Assembly: GCA_977020255.1 (NCBI GenBank)
Contig: CDROCS010003752.1
Coordinates: 124,001-188,000 of the forward strand
Length of the DNA stretch: 64,000 nucleotides
Direction: 5' to 3'
From: Obrimoposthia wandeli
Taxonomy: Eukaryota
Notes under the pieces: generated by a model
Database searches by the model: none
What the model was told of the DNA's origin: nothing
The model's input: only the letters and a program-made list of their open reading frames with translations
Shown: in pieces, positions 987 to 59,900 of the stretch
How positions within the stretch are numbered: position 1 is the stretch's first letter
Layout of the letters: each line of letters starts with the position of its first letter
Position numbers and translations under genes: made by a program

Positions 987-3900
987 TCAGTTGAACATGA
1001 GGTCCTTATACTCCCGCAGCAAGGTCACGATGCTGGTCGAGTAGCTCGTTGTCGTTCGCACTACTCGAAACCTGTCAGCCCGTTCGAAATTGGACTTCAC
1101 CATTTCGTAGTATTTGCCGTCACTCAGAGTCAGCGTCTTCAGCAGGGGACACTTCAACCTGTATCCACAGACAGATATATAAACAATACATACATATCTA
1201 CTAATCTTACATTTATAGGACTAAAATAATGTTTACTGTTACTAATTCTTTATTTTAATTTAGAAATTCACTAACAATTCATTAAATTTTAATACAGTCG
1301 CATTAGGAAGAGAAAAAGAAGATACCAACAGTCTTTTGACCTCAATTAATCATAGAGTGAATCAGTAAGACAGTGTGTAACAAAACAGGGACAGCAAAGT
1401 CGGGACCAGATAAATTTCTACAATTTTAACTGTCAGTCAGAGCAAGTTCAGGAAACTGTAAAGGATATAGAATTCCGAGGAAGACACAATTGTTGAAGAA
1501 TCGAGAATTTTGACTGACGATCAGAGCTGACAATTTACGTAGGAGACAGAAGCAGACATAACTTAAGACAGAATATCTTTGTGTAAACTTATAATAATTT
1601 ATTAATTGCTTTTCTACTAATTCCTTAACTTGGGAGTTAACCATCACAGTCCTTTCAGTAGTAAGTAAAGTCGTATACTTGTAACAGTCTCCAAAGATTT
1701 TTTAATATATAAAAATACTAGAATGCTCCTGCTTCGTTTCAAAAGTTAATGAATAAAGTTTTAGGAGAATTAAACTCGAAAGAAGCCGTTGTATATCTAG
1801 ATGACATATTAATATGTTCGGAGACAAAAAAGATATGTATAAAATGATACAAAAATTTTTTAAAAGAAATAATTAATGTTGGATTAAAATTGAAATTACA
1901 AAAGTGCCAATTTATGAAGACAGCTAAAATTTTTAGGCCACATAATTTCAGGAAAAGGTAAAATTAACAAACAGATCCGACTAAAATTTGAAGATATTAA
2001 AAACTTTGAACGACCGAAGTGTGTAAAAAGTTACGGAGTTTCCTGGGTCTAACCAATTACTAAGGAAGATTTATTAATAACTATTCTGAATATGCGAGAC
2101 CATTAGAGAAAATATCAGGTAGCAATGAGAAAAAACCTTTGGAATGAAACATGTGAGAACTCATTTCAAACTTTAAAAAGGAAATTAATAAAAGCACCAA
2201 TTTCGATTTATCCTGATTTTAAGAAAGATTTTTAGTAAACACCGATGCCAGTTTTGATAGAATTGGTGCAGTATTATCTCAAGTAAATGATTTGGGTCAT
2301 GAAAGAGTAATATCATATGGGTCAAAGACTATGAATCCTCATGAAACAGGTTACTGTATTACAAGAAAAGAAATGCTGCCCATTGTGTGTTTTACAGATT
2401 ATTTTAAACACTATCTCTATGGCCAAAGATTTCGTCTTCGAACTGATCACAAAGCTATAACTTTCATGATTAAAACTAAAAGCCAATAACATCTCAATTT
2501 CAAACGTGGTGCAATCATCTGAGTAGACTTGATATGGTTTCAGATAACAGAAAATGTGAAAACCACTTAAATGCTGATGTACTTTCCAGAAGTAAATGTG
2601 GAACTTGTGTTCAATGCAAAACTAATCATGAAAATCCAAAAACAGGGAATCTGAAAACAAAAGTTTTATCACTTGATATCAAAGATATTGGCATAGAATG
2701 GCAAAGTAATTCCGAAGAGATAAGAAAATTAAAAGTAAATATAGAGATAGAAGATAATTATAAAATTATTAATAATATACTAATGACTAACAATGATAAA
2801 GTATGGTTACCAAAAGAAAGTATAAAAGAGTTGATAATGCATGTTCTCAAAACTCTATGTCATGCTGGTTGGAGAAAAGTAATTGAATACATTTCTCATA
2901 GATTTGACTTCGTCGAAAGATTAAAATTTATCAAAAATATAATTCAAAGTTGTGAAAATTGTAAGAAACAAAAAGTAGTGACAACAAGAACAAAAGAATC
3001 AAATAAAGAAAATTCGGATTACAGTCTTTTTCGTAGCGTATTTATAGATTTTTGTGGGCCATTAAAAACAACATACAGTGGAAAAATATATAATTGGTAT
3101 AATTGATCAATTTGATTCTAAAATTTGGAGCTCCAAGAGAAATACATTGTGATCATGGGAAATCATTTGAATCAAATTTAATGAAAGAACTAACAAATAA
3201 ATGTAAAATTAAATTATTATTTCAAGTCCATATCAGTAGGTAGATGTGGCACTTCTGGCACAAAGCCCCCCCCCTGAGGACAAATTTTTTTAAGGTCAAG
3301 TTGAGGACAAAAAATGTAGGTCAAGTTAAGGTCACGGTGAGGTCAAGATGTAGGTCATGGGAAAAATGTAGGTCATGACCTCATAAGATCATGACCCCCC
3401 CCCTATGCTCAGGAAAAATGTCTTTGTCCTGAAAGACACACATCAAGTAGGGGGATGTGTGTCTTTCAGGACAAAGACATTTTGAGCACAGTTTAAGGTC
3501 ACGGTGAGGACAAGATGTAGGTCATGACCTCATGAGGTCAAGTCAAGTTAAGGTCAAGTTAAGGTCATGACGTCATGAGGACAATGTACTTTAAGGTCAA
3601 CTTAAGGTCATGATGAGGACAATGTACTTTAAGGTCAACTTAAGGTCATGATGAGGACAATGTACTTTAAGGTCAACTTAAGGTCATGACGTCATGAGGA
3701 CAACTTAAGGTCACAGTGAGGTCAAAAATATTCTATTTTTAGTAACATTCTTTAAATCTATATATCTTTTTATCTAAAGACTGTATTAACACCAATTCAA
3801 CAAAATACATCTAGTGTGTGTGTGTGTGTTTTATAATTTAAATTAAATTATCTACTTATAAAATAAAGTATTATATAATTTGATAAATTTATTTAAACTA

Positions 3901-6900
3901 AATTAAATTAAACTATCTACTTATAAAATAAAGTATTATATAATTTGATAATCATGTTTAAACGTTCCTATATCTATCTAACAAAGACAGTCACGTACTG
4001 CATCTATATTGCAAAAACCTGCAAATTTATGTAAATAAAGACAAGTATTTTAAACACATATATTCCTTAAAATCACAAAGGAGAATAAAAATATGTACAA
4101 CACATATAAAAAGTTTATACAACCTCATCCGGGTATAAAAAGTGACCATAGGCGACTGAACGGTTTTTCTCCACCCACTTGCGCTTATCATCACTACTAC
4201 TTAAGGCAATTTTACTTAACCTTAAAGTGAAAAGTTGATGATTTAGCGAGCTTATACGTTGTTGTTGTACACGCTCGCTAACGCCACTCTCATATACGGC
4301 TAAGTAATACGAGTGCCTAATACTCGTCTGTCGGAGACTAATACCTTTCGCTCTCATCTGAGATTCACCTGCTGTAGTCTCTAGGCTATATGATTTTGGT
4401 CGTAGAAAAATCCCTTGCCTATAACTAAATAATCCCTTACTCTCATCTTTAAATTTTCCTATCGCTGTATTAAGCGTCGTATAAAGCGGATGGGTTTTTG
4501 GAAATTTCGAGGTATCCAACAGTCCATCGGCAATCATAGCAGGTAACAGTGATTCTTGAACATTGACATTATTACACTTCAAGAAAAAGCTATCAGTGTC
4601 ACCCGCTATAATTCTAATGTCGCAGTTAAATTGAACTCGATATTTCTCCAACTGCTCATATTGTAGCTCATACATACGAAGTTTGCTTAAATCTAATACC
4701 GCCTGGCCCATGTAACTAGGACGATCCAAAACAATATTTTCCTTATCCAGTAAAACTGCAATAAGGTCCGTATCGATTTCAATTGTCCTACGAAAGTGGG
4801 CTTTACTGCAATAGGTAACCAGCTTCTGTGGAGTATTACAATTCCGGAGGTTAATTCTTTTCATCAGATTCTCAATGAGTTTTCCAAATAAAGAATTCAC
4901 CTTCAGTTTATAATAATCCCGCTCGAAATCTGTTGTAGCCGCAGCTCTTTTGAGAGAATTATCCTCAATATATTTTGAAAAAACATTAGTTTGTTCAAAC
5001 TGTATTGCTCTATATACAAAATCTACCTTAGCACCAATTCTAACGTACATTTGTAGCAATCTAGAATGCACAACATAATGTTTCTTAGGGTAATGTGTTA
5101 ATAACAATTTTTTAGTCTTACACCCTGGTGGACGCTGTTTAATGGGAGCAAGGGGAAGATCGTCGAATTTATTATGAAGCTCGAAGGGAATGGATAAATC
5201 TATTTCCAATAAATGAGCGAAGCGACTACAGGATAAATCTGCTGATTTTAAGCTGGAAATAATATTCCCCAAATCTAACCGATCAGTCACCCAGGAAAAG
5301 TTACCACAAGGTAAAAACTGGGACATAGCCCACCCGTACAAATTATTTACATCAATGTACAAAAGTTCTGTACCATCGATGGCGTCAACGCGGTGTTCAT
5401 TAACAAATGTCCTACCCCCGCGAATCCCAGACCGGAAGAGTCGGTACATTTCTGGATCCTGTATTAGCTCGACTCGCACAACGGGAGCAGAAGAAGAAGC
5501 CGGACGAAGCAGGGATTTGAAAGCACTCGCGAAAGTCAGTCCTGGAAATAAAATCATTTATTAAAATCATTGTGAAAATCATTGTGAAAATCATTGTGAA
5601 AATCATTACTTTGAAAATCATCTATCTAACAAAGACAGTCACGCATCTATATTGCAAATACTTGCATCTTTATGTAATCAATAGTAACATTTATTCTTGT
5701 ATATATATATGTGTGAGTATCTAACAAAGACAGTCACGCATCTATATTGCAAATACTTGCATCTTTATGTAATCAATAGTAACATTTATTCTTATACATG
5801 TATATATATATATGTGAGTATCTAACAAAGACAGTCACGTGTGTGTCTAACAAAGACAGTAATCAATACCTACAAAGATAGTCACGTGTGTCTAACAAAG
5901 ACAATCATCAATACTTACAAAGACGTGCTGCATCTATATTGCAAAAACCTGCATCTTTATGCAATCAATAGTAACAAGAACTACATTTATTCTTATACAT
6001 GTATATATATATATATATATATGTGTTAGTGTCTAAAATTAGAAAAAACTAGTAGAATACAAACCAGGAATGGAGAAGAAATTGAGTGGCTCCAATCCAT
6101 CGTCAGCAATGGCCTTGGTCCGGAATGCTGTAAACACGTCTGCTAGAAGGTAGATGTCCATCTTCATATAGACCAGCATATAGTCCCAGAGCGATGAGCA
6201 GCCGCTCTGAGTCCAGACCATCTTCGCCATCTGATATTGTGCTGGCTTGATCTTTTCATCCCACTTTGGCGGTAAGCTGGTGATTGCACGAAGAGCAGTC
6301 TCTGATACTGCCATATCGTATGGGAAGATTCCCTTGGCGCTCACCAGATGTTGCGGGAAGACCGAATGTGTAAGAGGAGTCACACCCAGGTTTTTCTAAG
6401 CTGCTGTTCAAAAATTGAAGGGAATCGATGAAACGTATACAGACTCCTCCAATATACACCATCATAGCCTGGAATTTCTCTGTTGATTGAGGTATAACAG
6501 ATACATTCCAGTCGGGAAACTTGCATAGTGCGTGCTTAAATATGTGGTGCATGTCATAACCCATAAGATTGTGAAAAATGACGGGAAAAGATCGATTGAT
6601 TCTACTTGATAAGTTGCATTTCGTATGCGCTGCTCCCAGGTATTCGCCAGTCATGTGATCGTGATCTCGAACGTTGTTTGCGAGTTTCTTCTTACACAGA
6701 TAACAGATTCTTGCTGCATTGAAACTCGATACCTGTTCCTGTGTGAGTTGTCGCATCACCTCGATCGCATGCTTCTTGTACCATGGGAGTACAACCTCTT
6801 TCACCAAGTCCTCTAATTTCTGCAAAAAGGATACCACACAAGATTCTCCGGTAAAGACCGAGTAATCATGTGTATACCCTCTCGTGGCTGCAACGGGAGA

Positions 6901-9900
6901 CATGAGCATATCGGCCGAGATTGGAAGTTGAATCTGATGGTGGATTCCATGTGGCGGCAGCACAGCCTCAAAGTCCGCGTAAACAGCAAAAGGCGGAGAA
7001 ATCGTTTTTGAAAAGTCCTTAAACTCAATATGCTTCTCTGTAGGCATTGAATAAAGCGTTGTATGATCTAAATTCATCCTACAGAGCGGAACGTGTTTGG
7101 CGTAACTTATCGGACTACGGAATCCATGAAGACACTTATGGCACCAAGTACACCGAATGCAATTAGATACACCTTTGTTCCTATAATTAAGCAGCCTATT
7201 GAGTTTAGGAATACCGACATAATGAAAATTATCATTATTTTCTAAAAGGAGAAGATTGATTGGCTTAGCGTCCGGGTTTGTGGTCCTGTAAATGACATCC
7301 ACATAGGGATTTTTGAAGATATCCCCATCTGTTTGCACATTAGAGAACCTATTGAATGTAAATACGTTGATTGAGAGAGATGTATTCTTTCTCTCAAATC
7401 GCGGTATATTACATAGACGCATCGGCATCTCATTCTCATCAAAAACTAATTGACTCAAAAGGGCATCATATTGCTTAACCCGCTGAGGATTAGTACGAAA
7501 TACGTCGCGGAAAAGTATAGATAAGATACTATAAAGAAAGCAGAAAGTGTTTGAGTTCTGCACATTGATAACGCAATGTGACAGTGCTAACTCAGATGGA
7601 GTAGGTATATAACTATAGATAGTTCATTGTCGTTGTTTTAGTCACAACAAACGAAATCTCCAGGAAGCGGTTCACTACCCAATTACTGCTACTTTGAGAA
7701 TAATTCTCAATCTTCTTGTTGATCCCATCTACTCCCGCATCTATAAACCCCTCATCTATGGGGAGCCCTCTATTGGAAAAATTCCAAGCGCGTGTTTCTC
7801 CAATATTGGAAAATTCAACACGCACCCCGAATTGAACCTTGCAAGTCGCAAACTTGCTGACTGTGTCCCTTAAGCTAGTCAAAAGGGATACAGGAACTTG
7901 TAAATCGATGAGATTGTCATTAGAAACATCTAATGACAATGTCTCAATCGTACCCCGAAGACTAGTCTTACGCTTAACAGCATTAACTTTGGAAAACTTC
8001 GCAACAGAGCTACCTGAAGTGGGCATAACACTTCTCTTGCGGGTAGATGCTGGTAACGGCGCGGGGATCATACCAACTGGAGGAGGCATAACTGGAACCA
8101 TTGGTGCAGCAGATGGTGGTGAAGCAACTGGACTAGAAATTGGAACAGCAGCAATTGGGGTAGATACTGGAATAGTAGCAGAAATTGGGGCAGCAATTGG
8201 CGAAGCAGCAACAACTGGACCAGCAACCCGAGAAATAGTAGCAGATCTATTCTGAAAGATGGCCTTCTTGCCACGTTGCTGGAAATGACGAAGATGGACA
8301 CGATGACGCGCCACAAACTCCAACCAATCAATCTCCTCCACGGAGAGACATACTGGACATACGTAGAATTGTTGTCCGTTGAACTTCTGTCCAAAGTAGC
8401 TCTTCATTTTTCCGTCACATTCCTTGTGACTCTCCTCGAAGCATAATTCTTTGTTCATATTGCAATTCTAGAAAGAAATAAATTAGCAGAAAAAATAACA
8501 ATAAACTTACCATTTTCAATTTCGTTTATAATAGGGAATTATTTGTTGATTGATGCTTGCTTATATACTATTTTCGAGCTAGTATTAAGCCAATCAGATT
8601 CATTCATTATTTAAACCAACCAGATTAATTTAAAACAGAATAGTTTACTGACAGATGTGAGTAGTTGAATTTTCATTAATATTTAAATAATCCAAACTAG
8701 CTGCAAAGCATTTCTTGTATGCACAATGCTCGCCATGTTTAATATATGGACAATTGATATTTGATGGATTTAATTGTTTTAATGTTTTCGAGTAATTTAT
8801 CACTCTAAATTCAGGAAAATATTTATTGATTGTCTTTATTTTAGCTCCATTATTTTCATCGAAACATAGAAAATTGATTTGGATACATCACAACAACGTT
8901 TTATTTCCTCAGTTATTTCTTGTATCTTGAAATAACTATTACCATCAACTAGTTTTAGTCGATGGTAATGCTTAATGAGATATCTATTTATTTTTCTTGA
9001 TTTTCTATTCATCATGTCCCATATGGGTTGCATTTTAAAAACATAATGTTTAGGATAGAAGATTGCATCCACATCCATTATACATAGTTCTTTTATTACA
9101 AATTCAGTATTATTATCAATAAAAGCTTCAAAATCAATAAAATAAACAGACATTTTTATAGCAATAATTTTATTTGATATTGTTTATATCTATTGTTTAT
9201 GCTTTAACCAAAGCAGACAGAGTTGTCCACATGACTGTGTTAAAACATTTTGATAATGTTTCTTACTAAAATGTACTTTCTTTCCAGAGTCAAGTACTGT
9301 AGATACTAATTTAGAAGGGTAATATATCCCAAAGGGGTCAAAAACAAAGATTTCATTTTCTTTAACATGTATTGCAATCCAATGTTCACCACGCAAATTA
9401 GATGAATGTGTATTGATTACATATCCACCTAGTCGAGTCAAAGAGGGGATGTGATCAAGGCTGTAGACTCCATTGAAACGCGAACCGAGTAGTTTTCTTC
9501 CGCTTTTTGTTATCTCGTCCGAACTAGAATATATATTAATTAATAAATTCAAACTGACTTACTTCATTTATATATCTTCTTTATTGTTTTCATTCTGTTT
9601 ATACTAGTACTGTTCCTCTCTTGGTAATTTGAACCTCAGAATCGAATACTCCATAGATTATAATATTAGTAGGGTGTTCAAGTGCTTTTGAAAACTTGAT
9701 TTCTACTTTCAAATTTCCCTGTTTAGGGATTTGAGCTTGATTAATATTGAAATCAGGAGAGAGAACAAATGTGAACAGTGTATACTTGTCCTTGAAATCA
9801 GTCATTGAAATTCTAATATTAGCATCCTTATCCAAATGACCAAGATTTCTAATTAAAGATTGCACATAAGAAAACACATAATCATCGTTTTCAAAGTCAT

Positions 9901-12900
9901 TCGTATAAGATTCTTGATAATCAATATTTCGTGCAAGTTTAATTGAACTCACATTCATGTGTCCAAATTGAGAAACCTCATTTTTAGACTCACCTCCATA
10001 GGTAGAAGTGTTTTGGAAAGCAATTAAAACAAAGTTTGGAAGTTGCATATCACCAAAAATCTGATCCTTGTAATAAGATAGTGCTCCCGTAGGGATAGCG
10101 TGAGAAACAAGATTAGTTTTTCTAATAGGATAACATGCATTTTGCTTCTCCAACCCCATTCGATGTGCAACAAGTACAGATGGTTTCACCTTTACTCGTC
10201 GAACCAGCAGTTTTGCTTCCGTAATCTCAATTGCGGTTTTAATAGTATCAGCGCAAACAACACTAAAACCTACTGGATTTCTCTTCATTCGAATATGTGC
10301 ACTTACACCGGGTAAAAGATACTTTGGTTGCATAAAGAAATCCAAATGGAGACTCCCACAAAGTGACAATACTTTAGACTTTGCAATCGAAGCAATTCTT
10401 CTTTTTTCGTCATTGTCAAACCCAATTGCATCAAGATTAATCAATTTCGTATCATTACCGTAATTCAACAATGTTTCAATCATTGCTTTATGGGTGTAAC
10501 TAGTATTATTTCCCTCAACTTTCACATTATTGAGACTGAGAATCACATCCTTGAAAAGAGTATGCAACATGTAATTAGCTGATTTGATATCCATACCATC
10601 ATCCAAATCACCTCCACCTTCCTTTGTAACTTTCAATTTAACGAGAAATAAACTATCATTCAAATCAAGATATTGAGTATTGGATCCATTAATATTGAAT
10701 TCTAAATCCGGAGAAGATGTCCCGTTAACCGTATTTGTTGGAAATATTTCTTCAAAACTAGCACTATCAACCACAACCTGAGGTATAGGTTTATCGAATA
10801 TACACAATTCAGTTTTAGCACAACTCATTACTTAAAAATTGTTCCACCTAGTTTCAAACGTTTGTTTATACCCGATGCTTTAGATGTTTTCTTACGTTTA
10901 TAACCACTTCCCTTTTGAGTTTTCTTTTTCAAAAATTCAGCTAGACTTGATCCAAGGCTGCATCCTTTAGTGTGGGAAGAAATTTCTCATCACCAGACAA
11001 GTATTTTGATCCAACATTAGCAATAAATTTCCCGAGTCGCTTGAGTAGTGGGAAAGCAAAGCGACCAAAAACCTTCATCCATCCTGATCCATACTGTTTT
11101 CCGGCAAAATAAGGCAAATCACCTCCTTGCATCGGTTTACTATACGCATCGATTATACTTGAATCAATCATATTTTTCTAAAATGTATTGTTAAACTTGT
11201 TTTAGCTCCAAATGAAAATTTAATTAATCTTCCTGAATCATCCCGAATGTTAACTTCAATATTGTTTATAGAAGAGGAACTCACAGGAATATACATTGGA
11301 TTTTCAATTGGGATATGTATAATATCTCCATACTTGTGCTTTTCCTGTTGAACCCAAATAGATTTTATTAATGGAAGTTTATTTCCACCCACAAATATCG
11401 GTTCAGTAATACTTGTGTAAATATAAATCTGATTATACGCATTACTTAGCTTTGCCCGATTAGATGCTCGGAAAACTTTATTAAGATTTTTAAAACTGTT
11501 TTCATTGAATCCTATAATTGTAGCTAAATTTTTATTCATATTTATTTATTTTACATGTGGTTTCAATTTAAACTTAATTATCTCCTTTTTAACATAAAAG
11601 CTTTCAAATATATTATCAATATTTTTCATGAAATATTGACAAAGACTTTCAACATTGGAAAATAAGCAATCATTTTCGAATGCATACTGCTCACGTACAT
11701 CCTCTTGATTATAATGATGCATCTTTAACTTTAATGTCGGTAAATCATATTTTTGATTTGGTAATTCCGATTCATAAAACATACTTTCAATAGGAGCTTC
11801 TTTCATACCGTAATTTAATGCTAAACTTTTATTATCAATTTCTAAATTGAAAGCTTGTCCCGTAGTGCGAATTATACAAATTTTGTTTTCGCCGCTAAAG
11901 TAAATAACATATTCACTATTAATTGGAGTTAAATACTTGACGAAAAATTCTCCATGTTTCATTTTCACACCAGCTTCAACTTCAGTTTTTATTCTTTTCT
12001 CCGCAACATAATCTATAATTGACCCTCCTTTAATGGATAGAGGAGAGTAATTGAAAGAAAATTCCGTCAGAGCAGCTTCCCAATGCCCAGGTAAATTGAT
12101 TGAGCTTTGATAATCAATACTAAAACTATTAGCAGTATTATTCGGCTGAGTTAATGGTGAACCATTACTTGGTAATACAACATACATTGAGTTCATTCTA
12201 TTTGAGAAGCTAATATCCAACTAGGTTCAGTATATCCATGCCACTTAACATGATATTGTTTATGCTTTCCTCTACCTTTTGTCTCTAAAATTTCTTGGAT
12301 TCTATATACATTTGGTTTCTCAGGCCAGACTTGTAATTCCTCATGATAAAATTTACCCGTGATTACATTATTGGTTTCATCCTCAATGAAATACATTACC
12401 GGCATACGTTTATTATCAATTTTAGTTATACGAAATACTTCATCGCTCCAATTCTCTTTGAAATTCTTTATAAAAGGAGTAGTACTAATTTGAGAAATAC
12501 GTACATAATCACCAACTTTATACTTGGGTTTCCGCGCAACTTGACTTTGATTACGGCATTGCCAAATTTCCATAGCATTCTCATCTGTAACATCAACGGG
12601 TCTCTTTCGGTCTAATGATGAGTGTTCACTATGATTGTATGCATGTATTATTTGAGGTAAAACAGTAACCCATGACTTATTTCCCTGCTTTGTGAAATAC
12701 TTTTTCAAACGATCTCTCAATGTTCGATTAAAACGTTCAACTAAAGCGGCTTTATATTGGGAAAATACTGAGTAATGATTAATGTTAGTTTTTCAATAGT
12801 GTTTCAACATGTTTATTATAAAACTCCTTTCCACTATCCGTTTGGAAATTTCTTGGTTTTATTTCTTTAATCAAAAGCTTCATTGCGGCTAAAACATCGG

Positions 12901-15900
12901 TACCAGACTTGGACTTTAATGGAATAGCTCGCGCGAATCTGCTAAAGACATCAACACAAGTTAAAATATATCGATATCCGTCGTTAATACTCGCATACGG
13001 AATCATTTCCATCAAATCTGCTTGCCATAAATCATTCGGGCCGCTCGTTTTGTATGATCTCGTTGGGACGTCTCATTGGTTTGTTTAAGCTGTAAGCTAA
13101 TTGATTTCTCAACCACGCCTGAGTTTCCTGCTTTGTCTTCTTTGACTCTTTTGCTAATTTTGAAACCCCTGTGTAACCGACGGGATGACTTGGATCGAAC
13201 CATATTTTCTCCATTGCAGCAAGACGATTTGATTTTTAAATTGAATTTAGGAATAGATGGAAGTGATCCCATATATAAATTCATATTATTGATTCGAATT
13301 TATGTTTATAATCATCGGTTTATTAGTCTACTAGCAAGTGCACCAACTATTGAGCTAATAATTGGTACGAGAAATCCTAAAAATCCACCACTTTGCTTAT
13401 AAAGCAACTTACGTTTACCGATTCGTGTTTTGGCATGAAACAAAGCAAGTAGAGGTTTCTTATGCCGATTCAGGTTAGCCTTGACAATTATTTTACCAGA
13501 AACTATTTTCTGTATCATATTAAGTAAATCATCAATTACAAAAGTAGGGAATGATTTAAGAATAGCTGGGCGGCGAATAGCAGGTGCACGCATGAGAGAA
13601 TTGAAATAGGCAATACTCCTAGATTTCTTAACAACAGTTCTTTTCGATTTTTGAGCAACCATTTTCCTTGCACTTAAAACTGATTTAATCAATTTTTTAA
13701 CTTCGGGTTTAACAGTTTTCTTTTTAAAATTCATCTTCTCAAAACTGGTTTCTTTGTTTGTTTATAAACGGTTATTCCCGATGGATTGAATACATCAGTT
13801 CTATCTCTAAAGTCATCGGGACAATCTTGAGTAAAATCAATAAAAATGTATCCATGAGGAATAGTAGTTGCATCTTGAAATGAATCAATTAAAAACTTTC
13901 TATTATTCGGGTAAGCTTGTCTTGAAACAAAATCAACAACCGTCTGATCACGTGGATTCTTGAAGAGAACAAGGTAATGTACATTTAAATTACGAGTTCT
14001 ATGGTTCCCTCCTTGATGAAATAGATTTTGTGTGATGAAAATAACAGTTACTTCCCGATGTCGTGCTATTTTAGTGAATAAATTATTGAAATCACTCTCT
14101 TTATTTGCTTCTTGATATAAATCATCAATAACAATAACATCATGTCGTTGTAATCGCTCAGACCAATTATCATCGAATCCATTAATGACTTTTATATTTT
14201 TGATTTTCTTAAACTCTTTACTGGTTAAACCAGCTTCTCCATCTCCTCCCTGATGCCAGTATATTTTATTAAACTTAAAACTAAAGTATTTATTATTTTG
14301 CAGTAATTTACATACAAAGTGTGTTTTCCCACTACCACTAGGACCTACAATCTGAAAAACTGAATTATTTTTTAAGTTCATATTAAAAATATTAGATTAT
14401 CGGGATAATGTTTATAAGACAAAACTATTTAAAATATTTTATTACGAAACATCCAGCAACAAACAATAAAAAACTCTTCTCGTAGAAAAAGCTCCTTTTC
14501 TCTTCTTTGTTTGCGAGTTTCTTCTGATTGTATCCCTGAATGAGAAGATTGACTGCCTTGTCGTGCACCATTCTTCTTACGTGCTCCTCCAGGGGTAGAT
14601 TTGAGACATCAATGAGTTGCAGGACATCTGGTTCTATGACATTCTTCGAGATGAAGCTCTTCACCGCCTTGTCAACATCTTGATTGAAATAGTTTTTAGA
14701 CATAATGATGATGAAGTAAAAAGTAATCTGCTTATATACTATACATCTGAAATCTGATTGGTTAATAAATACACTGACTAATAAAGACACTAAAGACACT
14801 GACTAATAAAGACACTAAAGACACTGATTAATAAAAACACTGATTAAAGATAAAGACGAATAAAATTTACACATAACGATTAAAAATACGTATTTGATGA
14901 AGCATAGCTTCATTAGGAGCAGCAATAGTCCGTTTAGCTTTAACAAGATTCGAAGCAGCAGTAACACCAATCGAATGAGATAAAAATGCAATATCAATGC
15001 AAGCAGCATGTAAACTACCATAATGACCACATACTAAAATCTTACCACCATTTTCGATAGTTTCTTTAATTATATTATTAGTCTGTTTATAATACTTCAT
15101 TATTGTTTCTCCTAATTTTGAGTTTACAAAGACAGAAGTATATTTTAATTTCTTATAAGATATTTTATCCAGTATAGATGTATTGATTACATGAGTGAAA
15201 TTGGAGTTCAAAATATTAGTTTCATCAAACCCATCTCGATAATTACCAATATATAATTGATTTACTAAAATCTCACTCATCGCTGTTTTGTTTAACTTTT
15301 CTACATTAAGTTGAGCAAATCTAGCACTAAAAAACTATCAAAAAGATGGGTCATGTGGTTCATTTCCATACTCGAAGCATGAGCTATTATGGGTTCCATA
15401 AAAGCCAAAGCATTTAAAAAATCTATCCGTCTCTTATCTTCAATAATTGGATCTATAATAATTTCTTCTTCTATCGTCACTTCTTCTATCGTCACTTCAT
15501 CAATAGTTTCTTCTCTTCTTATAACTGTTGTTGTTGTTGCTGGTGGTGATGATGTTACTGATGATGTTGCTGGCGATGATGTTGTTGGCGATGATATTGC
15601 TGGTAGTGATGATGTTGCTGGCGATGATGTTGCTTCTGGTGCTGAATTGATTTTCTCCATTTTATCAATTCCGAGTCAATTTAGTCTTATATATTAAACA
15701 AGGTTAGATTTCATTGGAGCATCAGTTTCATCATATGATTTGATTGGAGTATTATTCAATCTTTCCATTGTACTTAACATCTCATGTAAATGTAGTTGAT
15801 GACGTAACCTAAAGAGTTAAATAAACTACATATAAATATTACTCATGATTATTTTTCCTAATTAATGCATTGAGAATAACTGAAGCAAGATCTTTTAATG

Positions 15901-18523
15901 CATCCTGAACCTCTTTACATTCAATAATTTCATCCATTTTATGATAAAGCAAATCAAATATTGTTTATAACCCATGAAAAATCTATTTTTAGACCACAAC
16001 TATTTGCAACATTACAACGTTTGCAACTATTTGCAAGTATTGACATGTGATGTCTTTGTCTCTAAGATAAATCTATTTTTAGACCACATTACAACTTTTG
16101 CAACATTACAACTATTTGCAACTATTTGCAAGTAATGACATGTGATGTCTTTGTCTCTAAGATAAATCTATTTTTAAAACTATTTGGTTTAGGAAATAAA
16201 TAACACAAGTGTGAAGATCTATATTAAACAAAATACATTCAATCAGATACTCATAGTTTAAAGATTTAACACCGAGTATCATAATCTTCCCGCTAGCAAA
16301 AATGTTCACGCATAGGGGATTGTATTTGACGTATCGAAGTCCCGGGAAGATTTCTGGCTCGTAAACAGCTTCCGATCCCATACTCTTGCTCATCTTGTTT
16401 AGGTTTATTGATGTTTCTAGATTTCTGCTGAGACTGATTGATTGGATTCTTTCGATTTTTATATCAAAAGGAAGACTGCTTTCATCCAGCACTGTTTTGC
16501 AACCCATTATTCTGCATGTACCTAAATTATAATTATATATAAATGTAAAAATAAATTACCAGATTTGAAAATGATAATAGTGTAACCTTCACACTTGAGT
16601 CGATACTGATGAGGCTTCGAAGTCCGAAATGGTAAGTGTTGGTTGTTACTTACAACCATTCCCTTGTAATTAATATTCACTAATTTGATATTGTGAAGTA
16701 GCATTTCTGATTATTATAAACTGATTTCTTCTATTTATACAATTTGAACATCTATTTTTAGATTTGCTTAATTGCCTATGCTATGAAATCTAATATTTCT
16801 TACTCGTCTAATGATAATTGTCTTGCAATATGGACATGTAATAAAACGATCTGAACATTTAATACACGTGTTTAAGTGACCGCATGGTAAAAGTGCCACG
16901 GAAATCGCATCGCTCATGCAAACAACACATTCGGGATTTGGTAAGAGGTACTCGAGATAATTTATCCGATGTTTTGATTCAGATTTTATTTCTAAAGACC
17001 TTAAATCCGTTATAAACTCATATATAGAATCATATTTGTTACCGAATGTTTTAAACCTATTAAGTAAAACGGCTTTGATTCTATCATGACTGTAATCACG
17101 TTTCAGCAAAACTATTTGACGAGTTTCCATCTGAGCATCAATTTCATCATTACTAATATGATATTCAACAATACATCCGTTCTTGATTCCCATACTAAAT
17201 GCTTTACAATCTCGAGTATGAAAGATCAGACATAGTATCAATAAGGTCAAGTCGGGGTACTGCTTTCCGACAGAAACAACATCGATAAGAATCATTCCAA
17301 ATATATACATTATCGAAAATCGATAATGTAGGTATTTCAATACCATTAGAATAATTATTGCGCACAATAACTACTTTATCCATTGGAGTTGTATCAAAAT
17401 CAATTTGGGTGGTGTTGGAATCAATTATTGGTACGTTTGAAACATTCATTTTCAAAACAAACGGGCATCTTGGGAAAAATAGCTGATGCTGTTTCATTGG
17501 TTTCAGATAGTACTCCCATCCCGATATTCCTCCCTGACAGTAAATACACTTTACATTATCTTTCGAATCATCGTGCTTGTAAAATCCTGCTTTTGCTAAA
17601 GCTTTCTTAAAGCTTTGGAGGATAAACAATTGAATATTTCAATTTATAATTGTCAATATGAATTTCGAAAAGCTATATCTACCTATGCATACATATTATG
17701 GATATGAAATGCACTTTTTGAAGAAAGCTCATAACTATAATTTTATTTTTCCTGTCAACATCGAGCCGCTTAAATTTGATTTTGAAATATCAAATTTGAC
17801 TTCTGTGGATAAAGAGAGAATCAATATTCTCCTGACTCAATTCGGAATCAACTATGCGCTTCAGGAAAACAAATTCGTAATCAAAGGATCAACTGCCACT
17901 TTCAAGCATGAGAATGGAACAATATACGAAGCACCTCCTCCTAAGCTAGAATGGATTCTCTCAATCAGAATTCAAGGATGCAAGATCGGGCCCAGTGGAT
18001 TGGAAACTACGATATGGAAAATAATTGATGCTGTTAGAGTTGACTAATAAATTTTTGTGTCTTTATTTGTATTATTTTATATATATAAAAACAATAGTGA
18101 TACTTTAATATTTATTATGAAAATGACTAAAAAACCTACTAAATCATTAAAGACTAAGGTTAAAAAGACTATGAGTAAAAAGACTATGAGTAAAAAGAAA
18201 ATCATGGAGGGTTTGGGTATTCATATGATGGCAGCAAATCTTTTAGGTAGATGGTTTGGTGGAGTTGATAAAAAAGCTATAAAGCACAAAAAGAATGTGG
18301 ATTATTTGAGAGGTATACAAAATCAGAAACGAGTGCAAAAAGGAGATGGTATACAAAAAGGGGATGGTATGCTTGATATTTTTGTAAAATTAGATAAACT
18401 TACAAAAGCATTTGAAAAGGATCCTAGTGCCTATCTTGGTCCAAAACTAAACATTTTAGCAAACCAACCAAAAACTTTGTAATTACATTGCAATATAGAT
18501 GCAGAGTGTCTTTGTTAGACACT

Positions 18524-18580
<57 letters not shown>

Positions 18581-21500
18581 AAGAATAAATGTTACTATTG
18601 ATTACATAAAGATGCAAGTATTTGCAATATAGATGCGTGACTGTCTTTGTTAGATAGATATAGGAACGTTTAAACATGATTATCAAATTATATAATACTT
18701 TATTTTATAAGTAGATAGTTTAATTTAATTTAGTTTAAATAAATTTATCAAATTATATAATACTTTATTTTATAAGTAAATAATTTAATTTAAATTATAA
18801 AACACACACACACACACTAGATGTATTTTGTTGAATTGGTGTTAATACAGTCTTTAGATAAAAAGATATATATATTTAAAGAATGTTACTAAAAATAGAA
18901 TATTTTTGACCTCACCGTGACCTTAAGTTGTCCTCATGACGTCATGACCTTAAGTTGACCTTAACTTGACTTGACCTCATGAGGTCATGACTTACATCTT
19001 GTCCTCACCGTGACCTTAAGTTGACCTCATGAGGTCATGTCATCACCGTGACCTTAAACTGTGCTCAAGGGGGGGGGTATGCTCAAAATGTCTTTGTCCT
19101 GAAAGACACACATCACCCTACTTGATGTGTGTCTTTCAGGACAAAGACATTTTTCCTGAGCATAGGGGGGGGGGTCATGACCTCACGAGATCATGACCTA
19201 GATTTTTCCCATGACCTCATGAGGTCATGACCTACATCTTGACCTCACCGTGACCTTAACTTGACCTACATTTTTTGTCCTCAACTTGACCTTAAAAAAT
19301 CTTGTCCTCAGGGGGGGGCTTTGTGCCAGAAGTGCCACATCTACCTACTCATATCATCATTCAAGTAACAGACAAGTTGAAAGACAATTTCGGACAATCA
19401 GAGATTCATTAAATTTAACAATGAAAGATAAATGCTCTAAAAATTGGGCTGACGTTCTTCCAGAAGTAGAGTTCTCTATGAATACTACTGTACAAGCAAC
19501 AACAAAAAGAGTCAAATGGAATAATATTTGGATTTTTTTTTCTTGAATGGTTTGAAGAAAAAGAAAGAGACGAAGACACATTTAAAACCTACAAAAACAG
19601 AATTAATCAAAATAATGAAAATAACTTAATTGAAAATAATTATCGACATTTTAATATCGGCGATGAAGTATTGTTAAAAATATATGTTCGAAATAAGGAT
19701 GATAATCGCTAAGAGGGTCCTGGAGCCATAGTAAAGAAAATACATAATAGAGCTTTCAAAATAAAATTTCCCAACGAAATATGTAAAGAAAGGAATATAA
19801 AATGAATAAAACAATTTAAAACACCAAGGGAGATCTAATAGATTGTGTAAACTGTGGTTTAAGGACCTACGGTCTTTAGGTAATATGTATACTGGTGAAT
19901 GTGTGATTGTGTGGTATGTTTATATTGCTCAATAATGAACTATATATATCCTCAGCACAACAATGAATGTTGTTTATTTATTAATATAGTTATGCCTGAA
20001 CTTCAGTCTTCTAACAAGATTCTTTATAAAATACAAGACAAAATCCAACACATGAACCTTCACATTTTGAAACTACACAGGAAAGGCCTTTCACAAAAGT
20101 CCTATATCATTAAAAACTCACAACTTAAAAGCTTCCATAAGAAGTGTAATAACTCTAGTCTCAACAGTTTTATAGGTCCTTTAGTGGGCCCGATAATTTT
20201 GACACATTAAATGGAGCTACTTAGTCGTTTTTTCTCATGAAACCCAGGGAAAATATAGACGGGTGTAATCAGAGGCGGACCCAGTTTTGATAGTCAGGAG
20301 GAGTGAAGTATCTTTTGACTACATGTTCATTTTATTTTTCCAGATTTTTCATGTTTGATTGTGTGTTTCTTTTAATTGGTTAATTTAATTTATTCAATGT
20401 GTATAGTTACAGGATCTGTAATTGTATTGGCTGTTATTTTTATTTTATCTAAAGCTGCTTATTTGAAAACGGTGGCGGTTGCTAGCAAAAAAAAGTTTGT
20501 CTTCTGTTCACTTTTTATTTATTTCGTTTTTATATCCCGAGGTTGTTCATAGTGTTAGTCTTGGTGTTAATTTCAATTTCAATGTATCTTAAATATTAAT
20601 TATTACATAAAATAAAATTACCTCATGAACTTAAACTAATAATGGACATTTTGCATTTGTTTCGAACTATCAAATAAAAATGATTCCATATTAATCATTA
20701 TCTTGTAATGAGCTACGTTTTAGTCAATAAAAATATAAAAATAATATATTCTAAGATATTTAAAATTTCACTGAAAAAAAACTTATACACATTTAGAATA
20801 TATTTAAATTGTCTACAGTACATTATTTATTGAGTGCCCTATAATAATAAAAAACATTTTGAAAAATAAAAGCACTGATTATTTAGATTGATCTTGAAAT
20901 CTAATAATATTTTTTCATTTTGTCGGCACATACTCTGCTTACTCCCTAACTAGGTTCGCCACTGGTTGTAAACTACTTGAATTTCTTATATTTTCTAATG
21001 TAATATTTTGTTGCTTAAGGGGTTAAGATTTTGAATCGAAGTGACACTATTTCATATACCTAATATTACATTAGACGATAAATTTGGGAATAATAGGTCA
21101 AATTTGTCAAAAGTGTATATTTGTATTTTGTTATCCATAATGTTAATGATACAGGTCCAAAGTGTTGGAAGGGCTAGGTTTCAGTGTACACCATGATAAG
21201 AAGACACACCTGATGTGATCGATGAATTTGCGGCTCTTGTCGCTGAAGCGGATCGTGTCGGGGTCCCACTGGATCTCAAGGGCCTCTAGCTGGGGACAAT
21301 TCTGTGCAAAGGCCTCCACGATCTGGTCGATGTGCACTCGCGTATTGTACTTGTAGAACCATCCATCAGCAGCCCCCAGGACGCAGATTCTAACACGGCC
21401 AAAGGCCATCATAGGACGATGAGCATATAACACTGTTCATTATTATTTATATTCTAGGTGTTCTGAGTTGAATTTGATGAATGACTTATGATGAAAGATT

Positions 21501-51949: not shown

Positions 51950-53463
51950 TGTCTATGGATTGTCCATTATCAAATATTTAGCTAGATTGGATGGAATTTC
52001 ATTCACCAGGTACATGACTGCATTTTGTAGTTTGGGAAGTAATTTATCATCACCGGATAAGGATTTTGATCTAACATTACCGATAAATTTCCCAAGTCGT
52101 TGGATTAGAGGGAAAGCAAAACTTTCATTCATCCAGATCCATACTGTTTCTCAACAAAATAAGGCAAATCACCACCTTGTATAAGTTTACTATACGCATT
52201 GATTATACTTGAATTACCACTATAAACAATATTTCGATAATGCTTTTATTAAATATGAATGATCAAGATAGAGCAAGCACATATATAGGTTCTGGTAGTA
52301 ATTTATAGGCTAATATGGATTATAATATAAATAATATTAAACATATTCATCCATCAACGAAAACAATAACTAGACCTACGCGAGTAACCGAAGAACGTAA
52401 GCCCTTTAAGGATTTGACTAATACTAAACGATTTTCATAAACAACATTATTAACATAATTAGAATCGAACTTTAAAGGTTAAACAATTGAATATTTGAAC
52501 TTTAAATAGCAAATATGAAATTCGAGAATCTGAATTTCGAAAAGCTACATCAGCCAATGTTCAAATATCACGGATATGATATGCATTTTTTTGAAGAAAT
52601 CTCACAGCTATAATTTTATTTTTCCTGTCAACATAGAGACGCTTAGATATGATTTCCAGGTATCAAATTTGACTTCAGTGGATAAAGAGAGAATCAATAT
52701 TGTCTTCAATCAATTCGGGATCAAATGTGAGTTTCAGGAAAACAAATTCATAATCAAATGCTACTAAATGCTACTGTTGAGAATTAAAATATTCCAATTT
52801 GAATTTAAATCAATTTATCAAAGTGCCCACAGTCGAACAGCGATTTTTTCAGTTATATCCAGTTCTTATATTGTGCTTCGCGGTAGGAAAATTGTTCTTT
52901 ACCACCTTTAGATAAAAATATATAGTTTTAAAGAAAGATACTAAAAATAGAAATATCCTCAAAAATACATGTATTTTATAGGCTGAGTCCTCATTAGGTC
53001 ATGACATCATAAGGTCATTGGTTGCCACGGTACCGGTTGTCATGGCAACTTGACCTTGTCCTGAAAATCACATAGCAACATGACTATGATCTGATATTGA
53101 CTATTTGTGTAAACAGAGCAAAATCATGATTCACATTAATTGGAAAAAAACTTGAGTAAAATTTGTATTTTTGTCGTATAATTTTTTAAAAATATTTAGA
53201 AACTGTGAAAAAAAACTTTCTGAACCCTCTTGTAAAATACAAAACGGACCAAAATATTTAAATTTGTAGGTTATATTATAATTTTTGATTTCCATAAATT
53301 TTAGGCATTGCTTTTTCGTTTGTTTTATAGAAAAATACGTATATATGTAATAAAAAAAAGTTGATTTGTTATTTTTGTAGTTATATAATACTTAATTTTA
53401 AAGGAAATATTAAATAAAATTAAAATTAAGGGGGTGCTTTGTTCCAGAAGTGCTACATCTACT
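51950..53463 (-). mobile_element. Internally deleted remnant of a sister Maverick (cupiennin-like fragment, 129-aa ORF homolog, right terminus)
   Basis: 51970-52215 aligns with 10930-11165; 52490-52767 aligns with 17623-17890; aggtcatgac repeats at about 52995-53015; ends ggggtgctttgttccagaagtgctacatctact, like 19312-19349. Confidence 0.88.
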
Positions 53464-56900: not shown

Positions 56901-59900
56901 CATTTTTTCAAAAAAAATTGCTCTATAAGGAATATTGCTCTATAAGGAACGAACTTCCCTGTCCCTTGAAAGTTCCTTATAGAGCAATTCTACTGTAATT
57001 ATAAAAATACCTGAATGAAATTATGATTTGAATATTATTGTGCATTCAAATTTTATTCGTAATCATGAAGCAAAACTATTCCTAAACATTTAATTTCATT
57101 ATTGGAAAAAAAATTCAATCGAAAAACCCAACTGGGAAATAGCTGGGCATTTTTTTTGGCCACGTCAAAGAACCATACAGGATAAAACCTAGTAAAAACC
57201 CTGTATCAGATAAGGTTTAATACTAAACCATCGGCTGTGTCAGCAGCAAGGGAAGTTGGTATTTGTCATGGACAAGGCGTTCAAAAATACATATTTAAAT
57301 ACATGAATAATCTAATTTCGAAGTATAAAACATAAATGTATTTCATAAAATACAAAATTTACAAACCTTTTTCTACTTCTTCTTAAATTGATCACAGTAT
57401 TTTTTTGAGATCTGCTAAAATTCGCAACCAAGAAATTATAAAATATAAAATATTACTTAAGGCGAATTAGGTAAACCATAAGTTTAAATTGACAATATTT
57501 TTTTAGAAATTACAAAATCAATTAAAATAGAAGAAAAATACGACTGAATAAATAAATATTATTAATTTAGGACTAAGATTATAGACTAGTTTATTTTAAT
57601 TAACATTTTTAATTTTATGGCCGATACTAACCGAGAAAATCAGCCAGGACCGGCTTTAATATGGTCTGTTATCTTTTTAACCAACTAACTGATAGATACG
57701 AAATGAATAAGGCCATATATTTAATATTTTATGTCTCAAATTTTTAAGTTTGTTTACGGTTTCAGCATTGGATATTTTATTTTCTCCATATCTTGGATTG
57801 ACTTAGTATCGATAATTTATTTGACTGGGACAATCGCCATGTGGAAGGAATATTAAACGCATGGCACATTGGGTGAGTTTTGCAAACTGAATTGACAAAC
57901 AGCCCGGAACTTCATGCCAAATAACGACACCATACCAAACTTCCATTACCGAATGAAAAATCGCCTACCAAATATGCTAAACTGAAATATTCGATAAGTC
58001 AAATCTCTAAAAACTCCCGTGTCCCTCATTTGAGAAGTTTGAAGTAACTGGGAGAATTCATTCAGTGCCTCTGAGTAGCCACTATGGCTAGATACTGTCG
58101 CTACAGTACAGTGATATATGTGATGCATATTGACATACACAGCTCATATATTTAATAGACGGTCCTATATCGAGTCTCGACGAGCGCCGTGGTAGTCTAC
58201 AAACTATGCGCCAGTTCCAGTCGATGCCGGCGGCGCCAAACTCGAGCAACTTGCGCCATTTGTTGGACTCGCGAGTGCCACTGCCAGCCCCTCGACAAAG
58301 AGGCTGCAGCATTCAGGACGCTGTAAGACTCCGAACACTTCGGTAATGAGGCTTTCTTCCGCATTGAGGATGATACATTTAAGGGAAATTTATATTATAT
58401 TTTGTCTTTATTGGTTTTTAAGTTATTTACTTTTGCACAAACAATCTGGTATACACGGTCTCAGATACTAAATACTTAACATACGGTGATCCTCAAGGTT
58501 TGATTATTGGTTCAATCCTATTTTGGATGTATACTGTGTCAATCGTAGCGAGAAAGATCACCACCTTTATGCTATTGACATAGGACTTTATGCTCATTTT
58601 GATTCTTAAAAGATAAAGATTAATATAAACCATGTTAAAGAAAAAAGAAATTTCATACATATCTGTGACTATATTATAAATAAAATAATAAAATAAAGAA
58701 CGCGGGTGGTGTCTTTAAAAGAAATATTACAATGGACTGTCAAATGAATAAAGTGATAAGAACATACAACATTCATATTAAAACGATTTATCTGATGAGA
58801 AAATACCTTACTACTAAGATAATTACAACGCTAACTCAAGACTATTTTTTTCAAATTTGTTTACGTTTTTTCAAATTCCATCTTATCACTTTAAATGTGC
58901 TTGTGCAAGTGAACATTTATTGAAGATCCATTGGATACAGATCAATGCTAAAATTGAATTCAAGATCGTATAAAAATGAATTCTCTAACAATAGTCAAAT
59001 ATTGATATGATCTTCTCGAGCCTGGTGATGTGACATCTTAGGAGCAATGATAGTGACTGCATATAGGTTAGGAGAGAGTGATGGGATATTTTAAAGTTAT
59101 GTTGCGAATCAGTACAACAATTAACTGATGAATATAAGAAACTGTAACAATGACGAAAAATTCAAGATATAACTGAAGAATTTACTATTCAGAAAATTGA
59201 CGAAGAATAATGGCAAATAGAAAGTACTTTTGGGTGTAAAGTCAAAGATTTATTAGATAAAATCGCTGTATTAATTAAATTATTTCATTGTTTTAAATTG
59301 TATTATATTTCCAAGACTTTTTGTATAAATGCCATTATATTCAAATTGAATCCATTTAAAAACTGAAGAACCACTAAAAATATGGAGAGATAAAATTCCC
59401 AGACATTAATAAATTAAGTTAAATAAGGATTGTTTTGTTGAATCAGATACAAACAATGTAAAAAAAATGAGAAAAATATGTTAGAAGACTGAAGTTCAGG
59501 CATAACTATATTGATAAATAAACAGCATTCATATCATTATTTTGCAATACAAACATACCACACAATCACACATTCACAAGCATACATATTACCTAAAAAC
59601 CCGTAGGTCCGTAAACCACAGTTTATACAATCTATTACATCTCCCTCGGTTTTTAAAATTGTTTTATCCATTCTATATTTTTTATTTTACATCTTTCGTT
59701 GGGAAATTTTATTTTGAAAGCTCTATCATGTATTTTCTCTATTATGACTCCAGGACTCTCATAGCGATTATCATCCTTATTTCGAACATATCTTTTTACC
59801 AATACTTCATCGCCGATATTAAAATTTCGATAACTATTTTCCTTGAGGCTATTTGCATTCTTTCGGTTAATTCTGTTTTTGTAGGGTTTAAATGTCTCTT

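Follow-up and report, generated by a model that had tools for sequence, protein, structure and literature searches.

STYX is one residue away from activity and MK-STYX reads FSX5R, with the Arg kept, according to the available text of PMC8622459. In the bracovirus proteins PTP-EX and PTP-M the Cys is changed to Gly or Ser and the acid Asp is lost, and the genes are retained in the genome (PMC3573978, available portions). The first-pass annotation of the DNA described here had noted that inactive phosphatases are known in polydnaviruses and are not known in Mavericks, and none was found described in Mavericks. The catalytic domains of MKPs dock on JNK via an FNFL segment (excerpts of PMC4802042).

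Accessory regions of Mavericks are known (PMC8097293, available text), some MELD viruses are recorded as having TBP-like and Gag-like genes (PMC8502044, available text), and Maverick expansions have been described in Dugesia (bioRxiv 10.64898/2025.12.11.693146, available text). In planarian Burro, Env and BIR are encoded in frame in a giant Gypsy polyprotein (PMC6431247, available text). The string 'phosphat' is absent from the main texts of PMC8502044 and PMC8097293, as is 'phosphatase' from the main text of PMC6431247 and from the available text of the bioRxiv paper. A literature search, with the original Burro paper, repeat-library entries and supplements (any of which may already annotate such domains) outside its scope, returned no report of a DUSP in Mavericks or Gypsy polyproteins.

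The DNA analysed here, called the window, is a stretch of 64,000 nucleotides with about 30% GC from a genome of 1.35 Gb. It contains a Maverick gene whose product is, as judged from sequence, a real, selected, element-borne pseudophosphatase. The predicted domain resembles STYX in its DUSP fold and in a Gly at the catalytic Cys column, and its model matches the STYX structure 2r0b with a TM of 0.89. Unlike STYX and MK-STYX, the protein lacks the Cys, the Arg and the Asp, has no rhodanese or KIM domain, carries an N-terminal extension of its own and resides on a mobile element. With PTP-EX and PTP-M, as described in the available portions of that paper, it shares the loss of Cys and Asp in a retained, virus-borne phosphatase. 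The bracovirus PTPs, however, have the classical PTP fold, belong to a domesticated wasp virus and act on another host, whereas the Maverick protein has the small DUSP fold, sits on a self-replicating element and has lost the Arg as well. Among solved proteins, the best sequence or structure matches of the domain are DUSP19, DUSP22, MKP5 and Slingshot; set against atypical DUSPs and MKPs, it shows about 25% identity and is without the catalytic residues and without FNFL.

The Maverick and its genes

Long TIRs, AG...CT ends, a 6-bp duplication, an RVE integrase, PolB, an ATPase and an adenain protease were all found in the element (Table 1). The core genes, long TIRs and 6-bp target duplication are also those of described Mavericks/Polintons (adintoviruses), and the earlier assignment of the gene to a Maverick is supported. 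Two subfamilies are distinguished, A and C; C is the older, is more decayed, has 75-78% identity to A and was found via a neighbouring gene.

The PolB, integrase and BIR-RING genes are all in pieces in the window copy. Terminal-repeat pieces and AT microsatellites interrupt the PolB region at 5596-6045. The BIR-RING gene forms one ORF of 331-333 aa in 4 of 12 subfamily-A regions; in the window (16768-17497) its 5' part is apparently missing, judged by the spacing to the next gene. ORFs at 11168-12196, considered as minor capsid candidates, gave no informative Pfam match, and a basic ORF at 13312-13734 ends in a stretch that weakly resembles adenovirus protein X (Pfam E 0.006). The TBP-like gene (16157-16507) has a counterpart at about 47% identity in a sister Maverick family.

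Other repeats lie around the element. A zinc-finger fragment of an LTR-retrotransposon integrase (2534-3106) adjoins its left side, and fragments of two other Maverick families occur at 1-155 and 52013-52836, with 79-87% DNA identity to the main element and many genomic copies each. Long inverted repeats about 40 kb apart (19350-19938 and 59479-60124) were also observed, the first beginning at the right edge of the Maverick, which may have inserted into another repeat.

Table 1. Features of the Maverick copy in the window, with the evidence for each.
Feature	Position	Strand	Evidence
Left 6-bp target-site duplication, CATATC	3229..3234	+	
Maverick/Polinton, 16,115 bp, AGTAG...CTACT ends	3235..19349	.	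repeats, ends, target duplication
Left terminal inverted repeat, ~830 bp	3235..4063	.	
PolB, in pieces	4115..7428	-	Pfam DNA_pol_B_2 24.1 bits, just under cut-off 25.8, E 2e-5
Adenain-like cysteine protease	9190..9558	-	Pfam Peptidase_C5 E 4.5e-4, 20.4 bits against cut-off 21.3
Probable double-jelly-roll major capsid protein	9599..10828	-	Atlas 0.98, cluster with PF21738 on 30% of members; Atlas recognition value under threshold, no hits in Pfam or PDB
RVE integrase with chromodomain-like end, in pieces	12193..13072	-	Pfam rve 49 bits
Packaging ATPase	13731..14381	-	Pfam Pox_A32 26.8 bits, above cut-off
92-aa ORF without a known family, next to the DUSP gene on its downstream side	14425..14703	-	dN/dS 0.23, purifying
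DUSP-fold predicted pseudophosphatase domain, C-terminal part of gene	14867..15280	-	Pfam DSPc, PDB alignment, model
Residues 124-127, EAML (FNFL or LNFL in MKP-type and retroelement DUSPs)	14900..14911	-	alignments
P-loop predicted dead, residues 84-91, CGHYGSLH (canonical HCxxGxSR columns)	15008..15031	-	alignments; 2,408 places
Ser54 (subfamily C: Thr) where the general-acid Asp would stand	15119..15121	-	alignments
N-terminal part: variable Ser/Thr/Pro repeats, acidic stretch, conserved ~50-residue segment	15301..15660	-	sister copies
Single-repeat TBP-like gene	16157..16507	-	Pfam TBP 47.7 bits; net dN/dS 0.10
BIR-RING (IAP-type) gene, split in window copy	16768..17497	-	aligns to giant retroelement polyprotein
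Right terminal inverted repeat	18569..19349	.	
Right 6-bp target-site duplication, CATATC	19350..19355	+	

DUSP fold and catalytic site

The 137-aa ORF on the minus strand at 14867-15280 (GGKILVCGHYGSLHA) matches Pfam DSPc with 46.3 bits (cut-off 33.5) over profile positions 1-131 of 133, and all 29 distinct PDB sequences that it matched are of the DUSP family and leave the loop ungapped. The clusters that lie closest to it in the Atlas are those of DUSP19-like and giant-virus DUSPs. Word-index protein searches at E 1e-3 returned no matches for the domain, the RING piece or the full IAP; they are judged insensitive because HMMER retrieved 476 DUSP relatives. Among viral contigs, 22 pattern matches were obtained and none was confirmed as a relative. 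No RNA data set was listed as containing the sequence, which has no bearing on its expression. A structure model of the domain reached a pLDDT of 93.9, and Foldseek matched it to human DUSPs with TM 0.82-0.89, a fold match that is not independent of the sequence match since the model was built on the DUSP alignment. A single-sequence model reached a pLDDT of only 36. The DSPc score and the model bear out the DUSP fold that the first-pass annotation had predicted.

This ORF is only the C-terminal domain of the gene, and the whole protein is predicted to have about 216-275 aa. A frame shared with the upstream ORF (15301-15660) was seen in 21 of 30 anchor-picked A loci, in 23 of 30 best-hit A loci and in 16 of 30 C loci; the domain start was found in 28 of the anchor-picked copies, and the N-terminal part is out of frame in 7 of these 28. 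In the window copy, a frame-changing indel near 15331 parts the two, so that the intact frame noted earlier holds for the domain and not for the whole gene of this copy. In A the N-terminal part is 102-152 residues long; C has 74-78. Its Ser/Thr/Pro repeats vary in number among A copies and are absent in C, whereas the segment of about 50 residues before the domain is kept in both (37-39 of 50 identical). In a natural 260-aa copy, Pfam detected DSPc alone and no rhodanese or KIM domain. The Ser/Thr/Pro runs are encoded by a short-period repeat at 15517-15651, opposite which lies a 102-aa ORF that is probably a shadow.

An alignment of 90 rows combined 79 of 150 library hits with 4 domains from the retroelement, 6 copies of the older subfamily and the protein of the window. 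D54, C85 and R91 are among its nearly invariant family columns, and the window protein has S54, G85 and H91 there. The change of the canonical Cys to Gly and of the Arg to His, as read in the first pass, is thus confirmed, and the Asp is found to be lost too; column 54 holds Ser or Thr in the Maverick rows, with one Glu. None of the 84 scored rows (47 A, 30 C and a further 7 C) has Arg at 91, and the CX5R motif is absent. The FNFL segment is also replaced, by EAML in subfamily A and by A/T-TLL/SLL in subfamily C. In DUSP chemistry, a phosphocysteine can be neither formed nor hydrolysed without the catalytic Cys, Arg and Asp. The domain is, in all likelihood, catalytically dead.

A shifted Cys that supports activity had been named as a point to check. 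A catalytic Cys displaced by an indel is rejected: DUSP19 aligns to the loop without a gap, and Cys84 of the Maverick domain occupies the canonical His column. Residual or new catalysis through Cys84 with His91 or His86 would be in keeping with the invariance of Cys84 in all scored rows. It is nevertheless highly improbable, given that Cys84 sits in the His column with no indel, that no Arg stands in the P-loop in any register or six residues on from either Cys84 or Cys94, and that the general acid is missing.

The same loop recurs throughout the genome. The window domain gave 150 scored matches (of 14,024 candidates), all 98-100% identical, and the loop was identical in all 30 loci that were fetched. 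Its exact 35-base sequence is present 1,708 times, the codon-degenerate pattern LVCGHYGxLH marks 2,408 places with no control hits, and the upstream anchor has 2,471 occurrences with at most 2 mismatches. All 47 scored rows of subfamily A (49 loci given) carry S54 and G85, and 46 of them carry H91. The subfamily C loop reads CGHYG(G/S)LHA; of the 30 C rows, all have T54, 25 have G85, 2 have Cys at position 85 and 29 have H91. In a second, independently picked C set (8 given), H91 stands in 7 of 7. The window copy itself differs by one private substitution (residue 96) and the in-frame loss of one terminal codon.

Sister copies with HCxxGxxR, which would point to mere decay of this copy, were looked for and none carries it. 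A genome search with Cys+Arg patterns on the Maverick scaffold returned 0 matches, another pattern giving 1 against 1 in the control. In the 9 of 30 canonical-loop loci that were looked at in detail, only retroelement and host-like DUSPs were seen and no active Maverick DUSP. In contigs of two runs from one sample, none of the variants listed falls inside the loop. Decay of one copy is rejected, as the loop is common to 2,408 places and to subfamily C. The predicted dead state is old and fixed in two subfamilies. One locus (L112:1-6101; G000:C21:88800-94900) has a tandem array of three units, 2.2-2.4 kb long and nearly identical, in which every unit carries the loop; this reflects either local amplification or an assembly effect.

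Selection and possible roles of the protein

Selection was measured by pairwise Nei-Gojobori comparison between natural copies, net of within-group diversity. Between A and C, the domain has a net dN/dS of 0.27 (95% 0.14-0.50) at a net dS of 0.33, and with the independently picked C set the value is 0.30 (0.16-0.58). The neighbouring genes gave 0.04 (ATPase), 0.10 (TBP-like) and 0.23 (92-aa ORF). Changes found in single copies gave 1.23 (54 replacement, 12 silent), which is the expectation once a copy has inserted, and shared changes gave 0.18, from only 10 variants. With both subfamilies dead, this selection came after the catalytic loss, and the domain has very probably been selected as a protein after its inactivation. 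The earlier description of the gene as retained, for which dN/dS among copies had been proposed as the check, is supported in this way. The constraint is moderate, the value lying well above the 0.04 of the ATPase, and folding alone could partly account for it.

Constraint is distributed unevenly along the protein. The conserved N-terminal segment has a net dN/dS of 0.15-0.20 and domain residues 1-83 have 0.17-0.22, a value of 1 being reached in no bootstrap out of 1000. The rest of the domain, residues 84-136, where the loop and the docking face lie, has 0.53-0.57 with intervals that include 1. The contrast between the domain halves is drawn from 53 codons and has a wide interval. The loop itself is no less conserved than the rest, with 8 of 10 residues the same between subfamilies.

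These values bear on whether the gene is a passenger relic, a dead gene carried along by a successful family, whose low dN/dS would reflect selection against misfolding or on the N-terminal part alone. The moderate constraint, a C-terminal half indistinguishable from neutral, the spread of a related Maverick family without a DUSP at that position and the out-of-frame N-terminal parts among anchor-picked A copies are all consistent with such a relic. The whole frame has nevertheless stayed open across a net dS of about 0.3, residues 1-83 are constrained on their own, and the fold is predicted to be intact, which makes the relic quite unlikely.

The first-pass annotation had suggested a STYX-like substrate trap or a decoy, with MAPK stress or immune signalling as an example of its target. 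In such a trap, as in STYX or the bracovirus proteins, the loop would cradle a phospho-residue by its backbone amides and His91 and sequester phospho-MAPK or another phosphoprotein. Precedents are at hand: bracovirus PTP-EX, without Cys and Asp, has been proposed as a trap (PMC3573978, available portions), and STYX binds both phosphorylated and unphosphorylated ERK (PMC8622459, available text). The Maverick loop has kept its length, its Gly88 (invariant in the 90-row alignment) and most of its residues between subfamilies. Set against this are the absence of Arg from every scored row, the loss of the FNFL docking segment and the position of the loop in the least constrained half. The proposal is therefore unsupported in the form given, with Cys, Arg, Asp and FNFL all gone, and a trap is considered unlikely.

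Since the Arg and FNFL are lost and the constraint falls on the N-terminal segment and domain residues 1-83, a phospho-independent binding role is, on balance, favoured over a trap, a relic or residual catalysis. It is reasonably likely that the protein is an adaptor rather than a phospho-trap. The gene is an accessory one in a Maverick family of high copy number, and would encode a flexible N-terminus, the segment of about 50 residues and a dead DUSP domain. Its product would act as a non-catalytic binder, adaptor or competitor, that does not grip phospho-residues and that binds through the N-terminal segment and the first half of the domain. Alongside the IAP-type and TBP-like genes nearby, it would probably aid the tolerance of Maverick replication by the host cell.

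The giant retroelement and the origin of the cargo

A second and larger DUSP population was found in the same genome, with VHCQKGISR at 5,904 places in frames of up to 4,633 aa. One of these frames encodes a polyprotein in the order Gag knuckle, fusion glycoprotein, protease, BIR, RING, protease, RT, RNase H, integrase and two DUSPs. Of the tandem DUSPs, the first has the CX5R motif (HCQKGISR) and the second is dead (IYQKKGTML). The polyprotein resembles Burro in its in-frame Env and BIR and differs from Burro, as the available text of PMC6431247 describes it, in the tandem pair of one active and one dead DUSP after the integrase. One example of the pair in a Gypsy polyprotein lies at L209:1240-9999 and L210:3-5138 (G000:C399), and the pair resembles the D1/D2 pairs of receptor phosphatases. 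A second family of the giant retroelement reads HCYKGISR.

The first DUSP (D1) of this HCYKG family matches the Maverick domain with 74.4 and 73.6 bits at 37-38% identity; the best of the top 150 hits in a library of 1.84 billion proteins scores 59.4 bits. The retroelement D1 aligns without a gap to residues 1-101 of the domain. Matches of the N-terminal segment to the retroelement are marginal (E 0.009-0.3). The dead second DUSP of the retroelement was considered as the source and rejected, being absent among the top-scoring rows.

The BIR-RING gene was compared with the same polyprotein. A natural 333-aa copy aligns to it over residues 4-329 with 31.6% identity (E 1e-46). The linker outside the domains scores 111-123, against shuffle maxima of 60-71. 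In the 60 PDB IAP matches listed, the best stretches span the BIR or the RING only and not the linker.

Phylogenetic placement was explored with two trees, from which partial host exons and the dead second retroelement DUSPs were left out; the comparison also excluded this genome's full-length DUSP and IAP host genes. In the 32-row tree (6 own rows, 26 library rows), Maverick and retroelement DUSPs are grouped with support of 82/83 on a branch that is not starred; a long branch leads to the Maverick rows and falls outside both families of the retroelement. The 76-row quick tree does not settle the grouping, and two alternative placements survived AU tests (p 0.33 and 0.29). In a sister Maverick family (73% in the ATPase), no DUSP match was obtained in 12 loci around the ATPase, nor in 4 of 5 flanking stretches, the fifth containing a subfamily-A insertion.

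Capture of the Maverick DUSP from a Burro-like Gypsy polyprotein is the favoured origin and, short of proof, a probable one. The direction from retroelement to Maverick is drawn from the activity of the retroelement DUSP and the patchy presence of the DUSP in Mavericks, and independent support for the retroelement origin comes from the alignment of the BIR-RING gene to the same polyprotein. The DUSP would thus have been captured, like the BIR-RING gene, from a Burro-like giant Gypsy lineage and then inactivated. Whatever the function of the protein, the two elements might instead each have acquired DUSP and IAP on their own, from shared host genes or a third virus; a common source and shared base composition would then explain the likeness. 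The long Maverick branch outside both retroelement families, the placements left standing by the AU tests and a PN(F/L)NFLGQL motif common to host DUSP exon pieces and the retroelement fit separate capture, but two cargo genes lead to the same polyprotein, the IAP linker included, which renders it somewhat unlikely.

If it did take BIR-RING and DUSP from the retroelement polyprotein, the Maverick might now use its dead phosphatase as a decoy that acts on the retroelement's own active DUSP, encoded at 5,904 places, or on its targets. This is an improbable reading; if true, it would amount to signalling-level conflict or cooperation between two high-copy elements. The pseudophosphatase gives direct sequence evidence that Mavericks keep non-catalytic proteins predicted to modulate the host. 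The cargo shared with the giant retroelement is the more surprising part. DUSP and IAP genes common to both elements point to a passage of genes out of a giant retroelement and into a Maverick within one genome. If the host is a planarian, a possibility raised by the Burro-like element, RNAi and stem-cell assays would make the effects of the cargo genes on the host directly testable.
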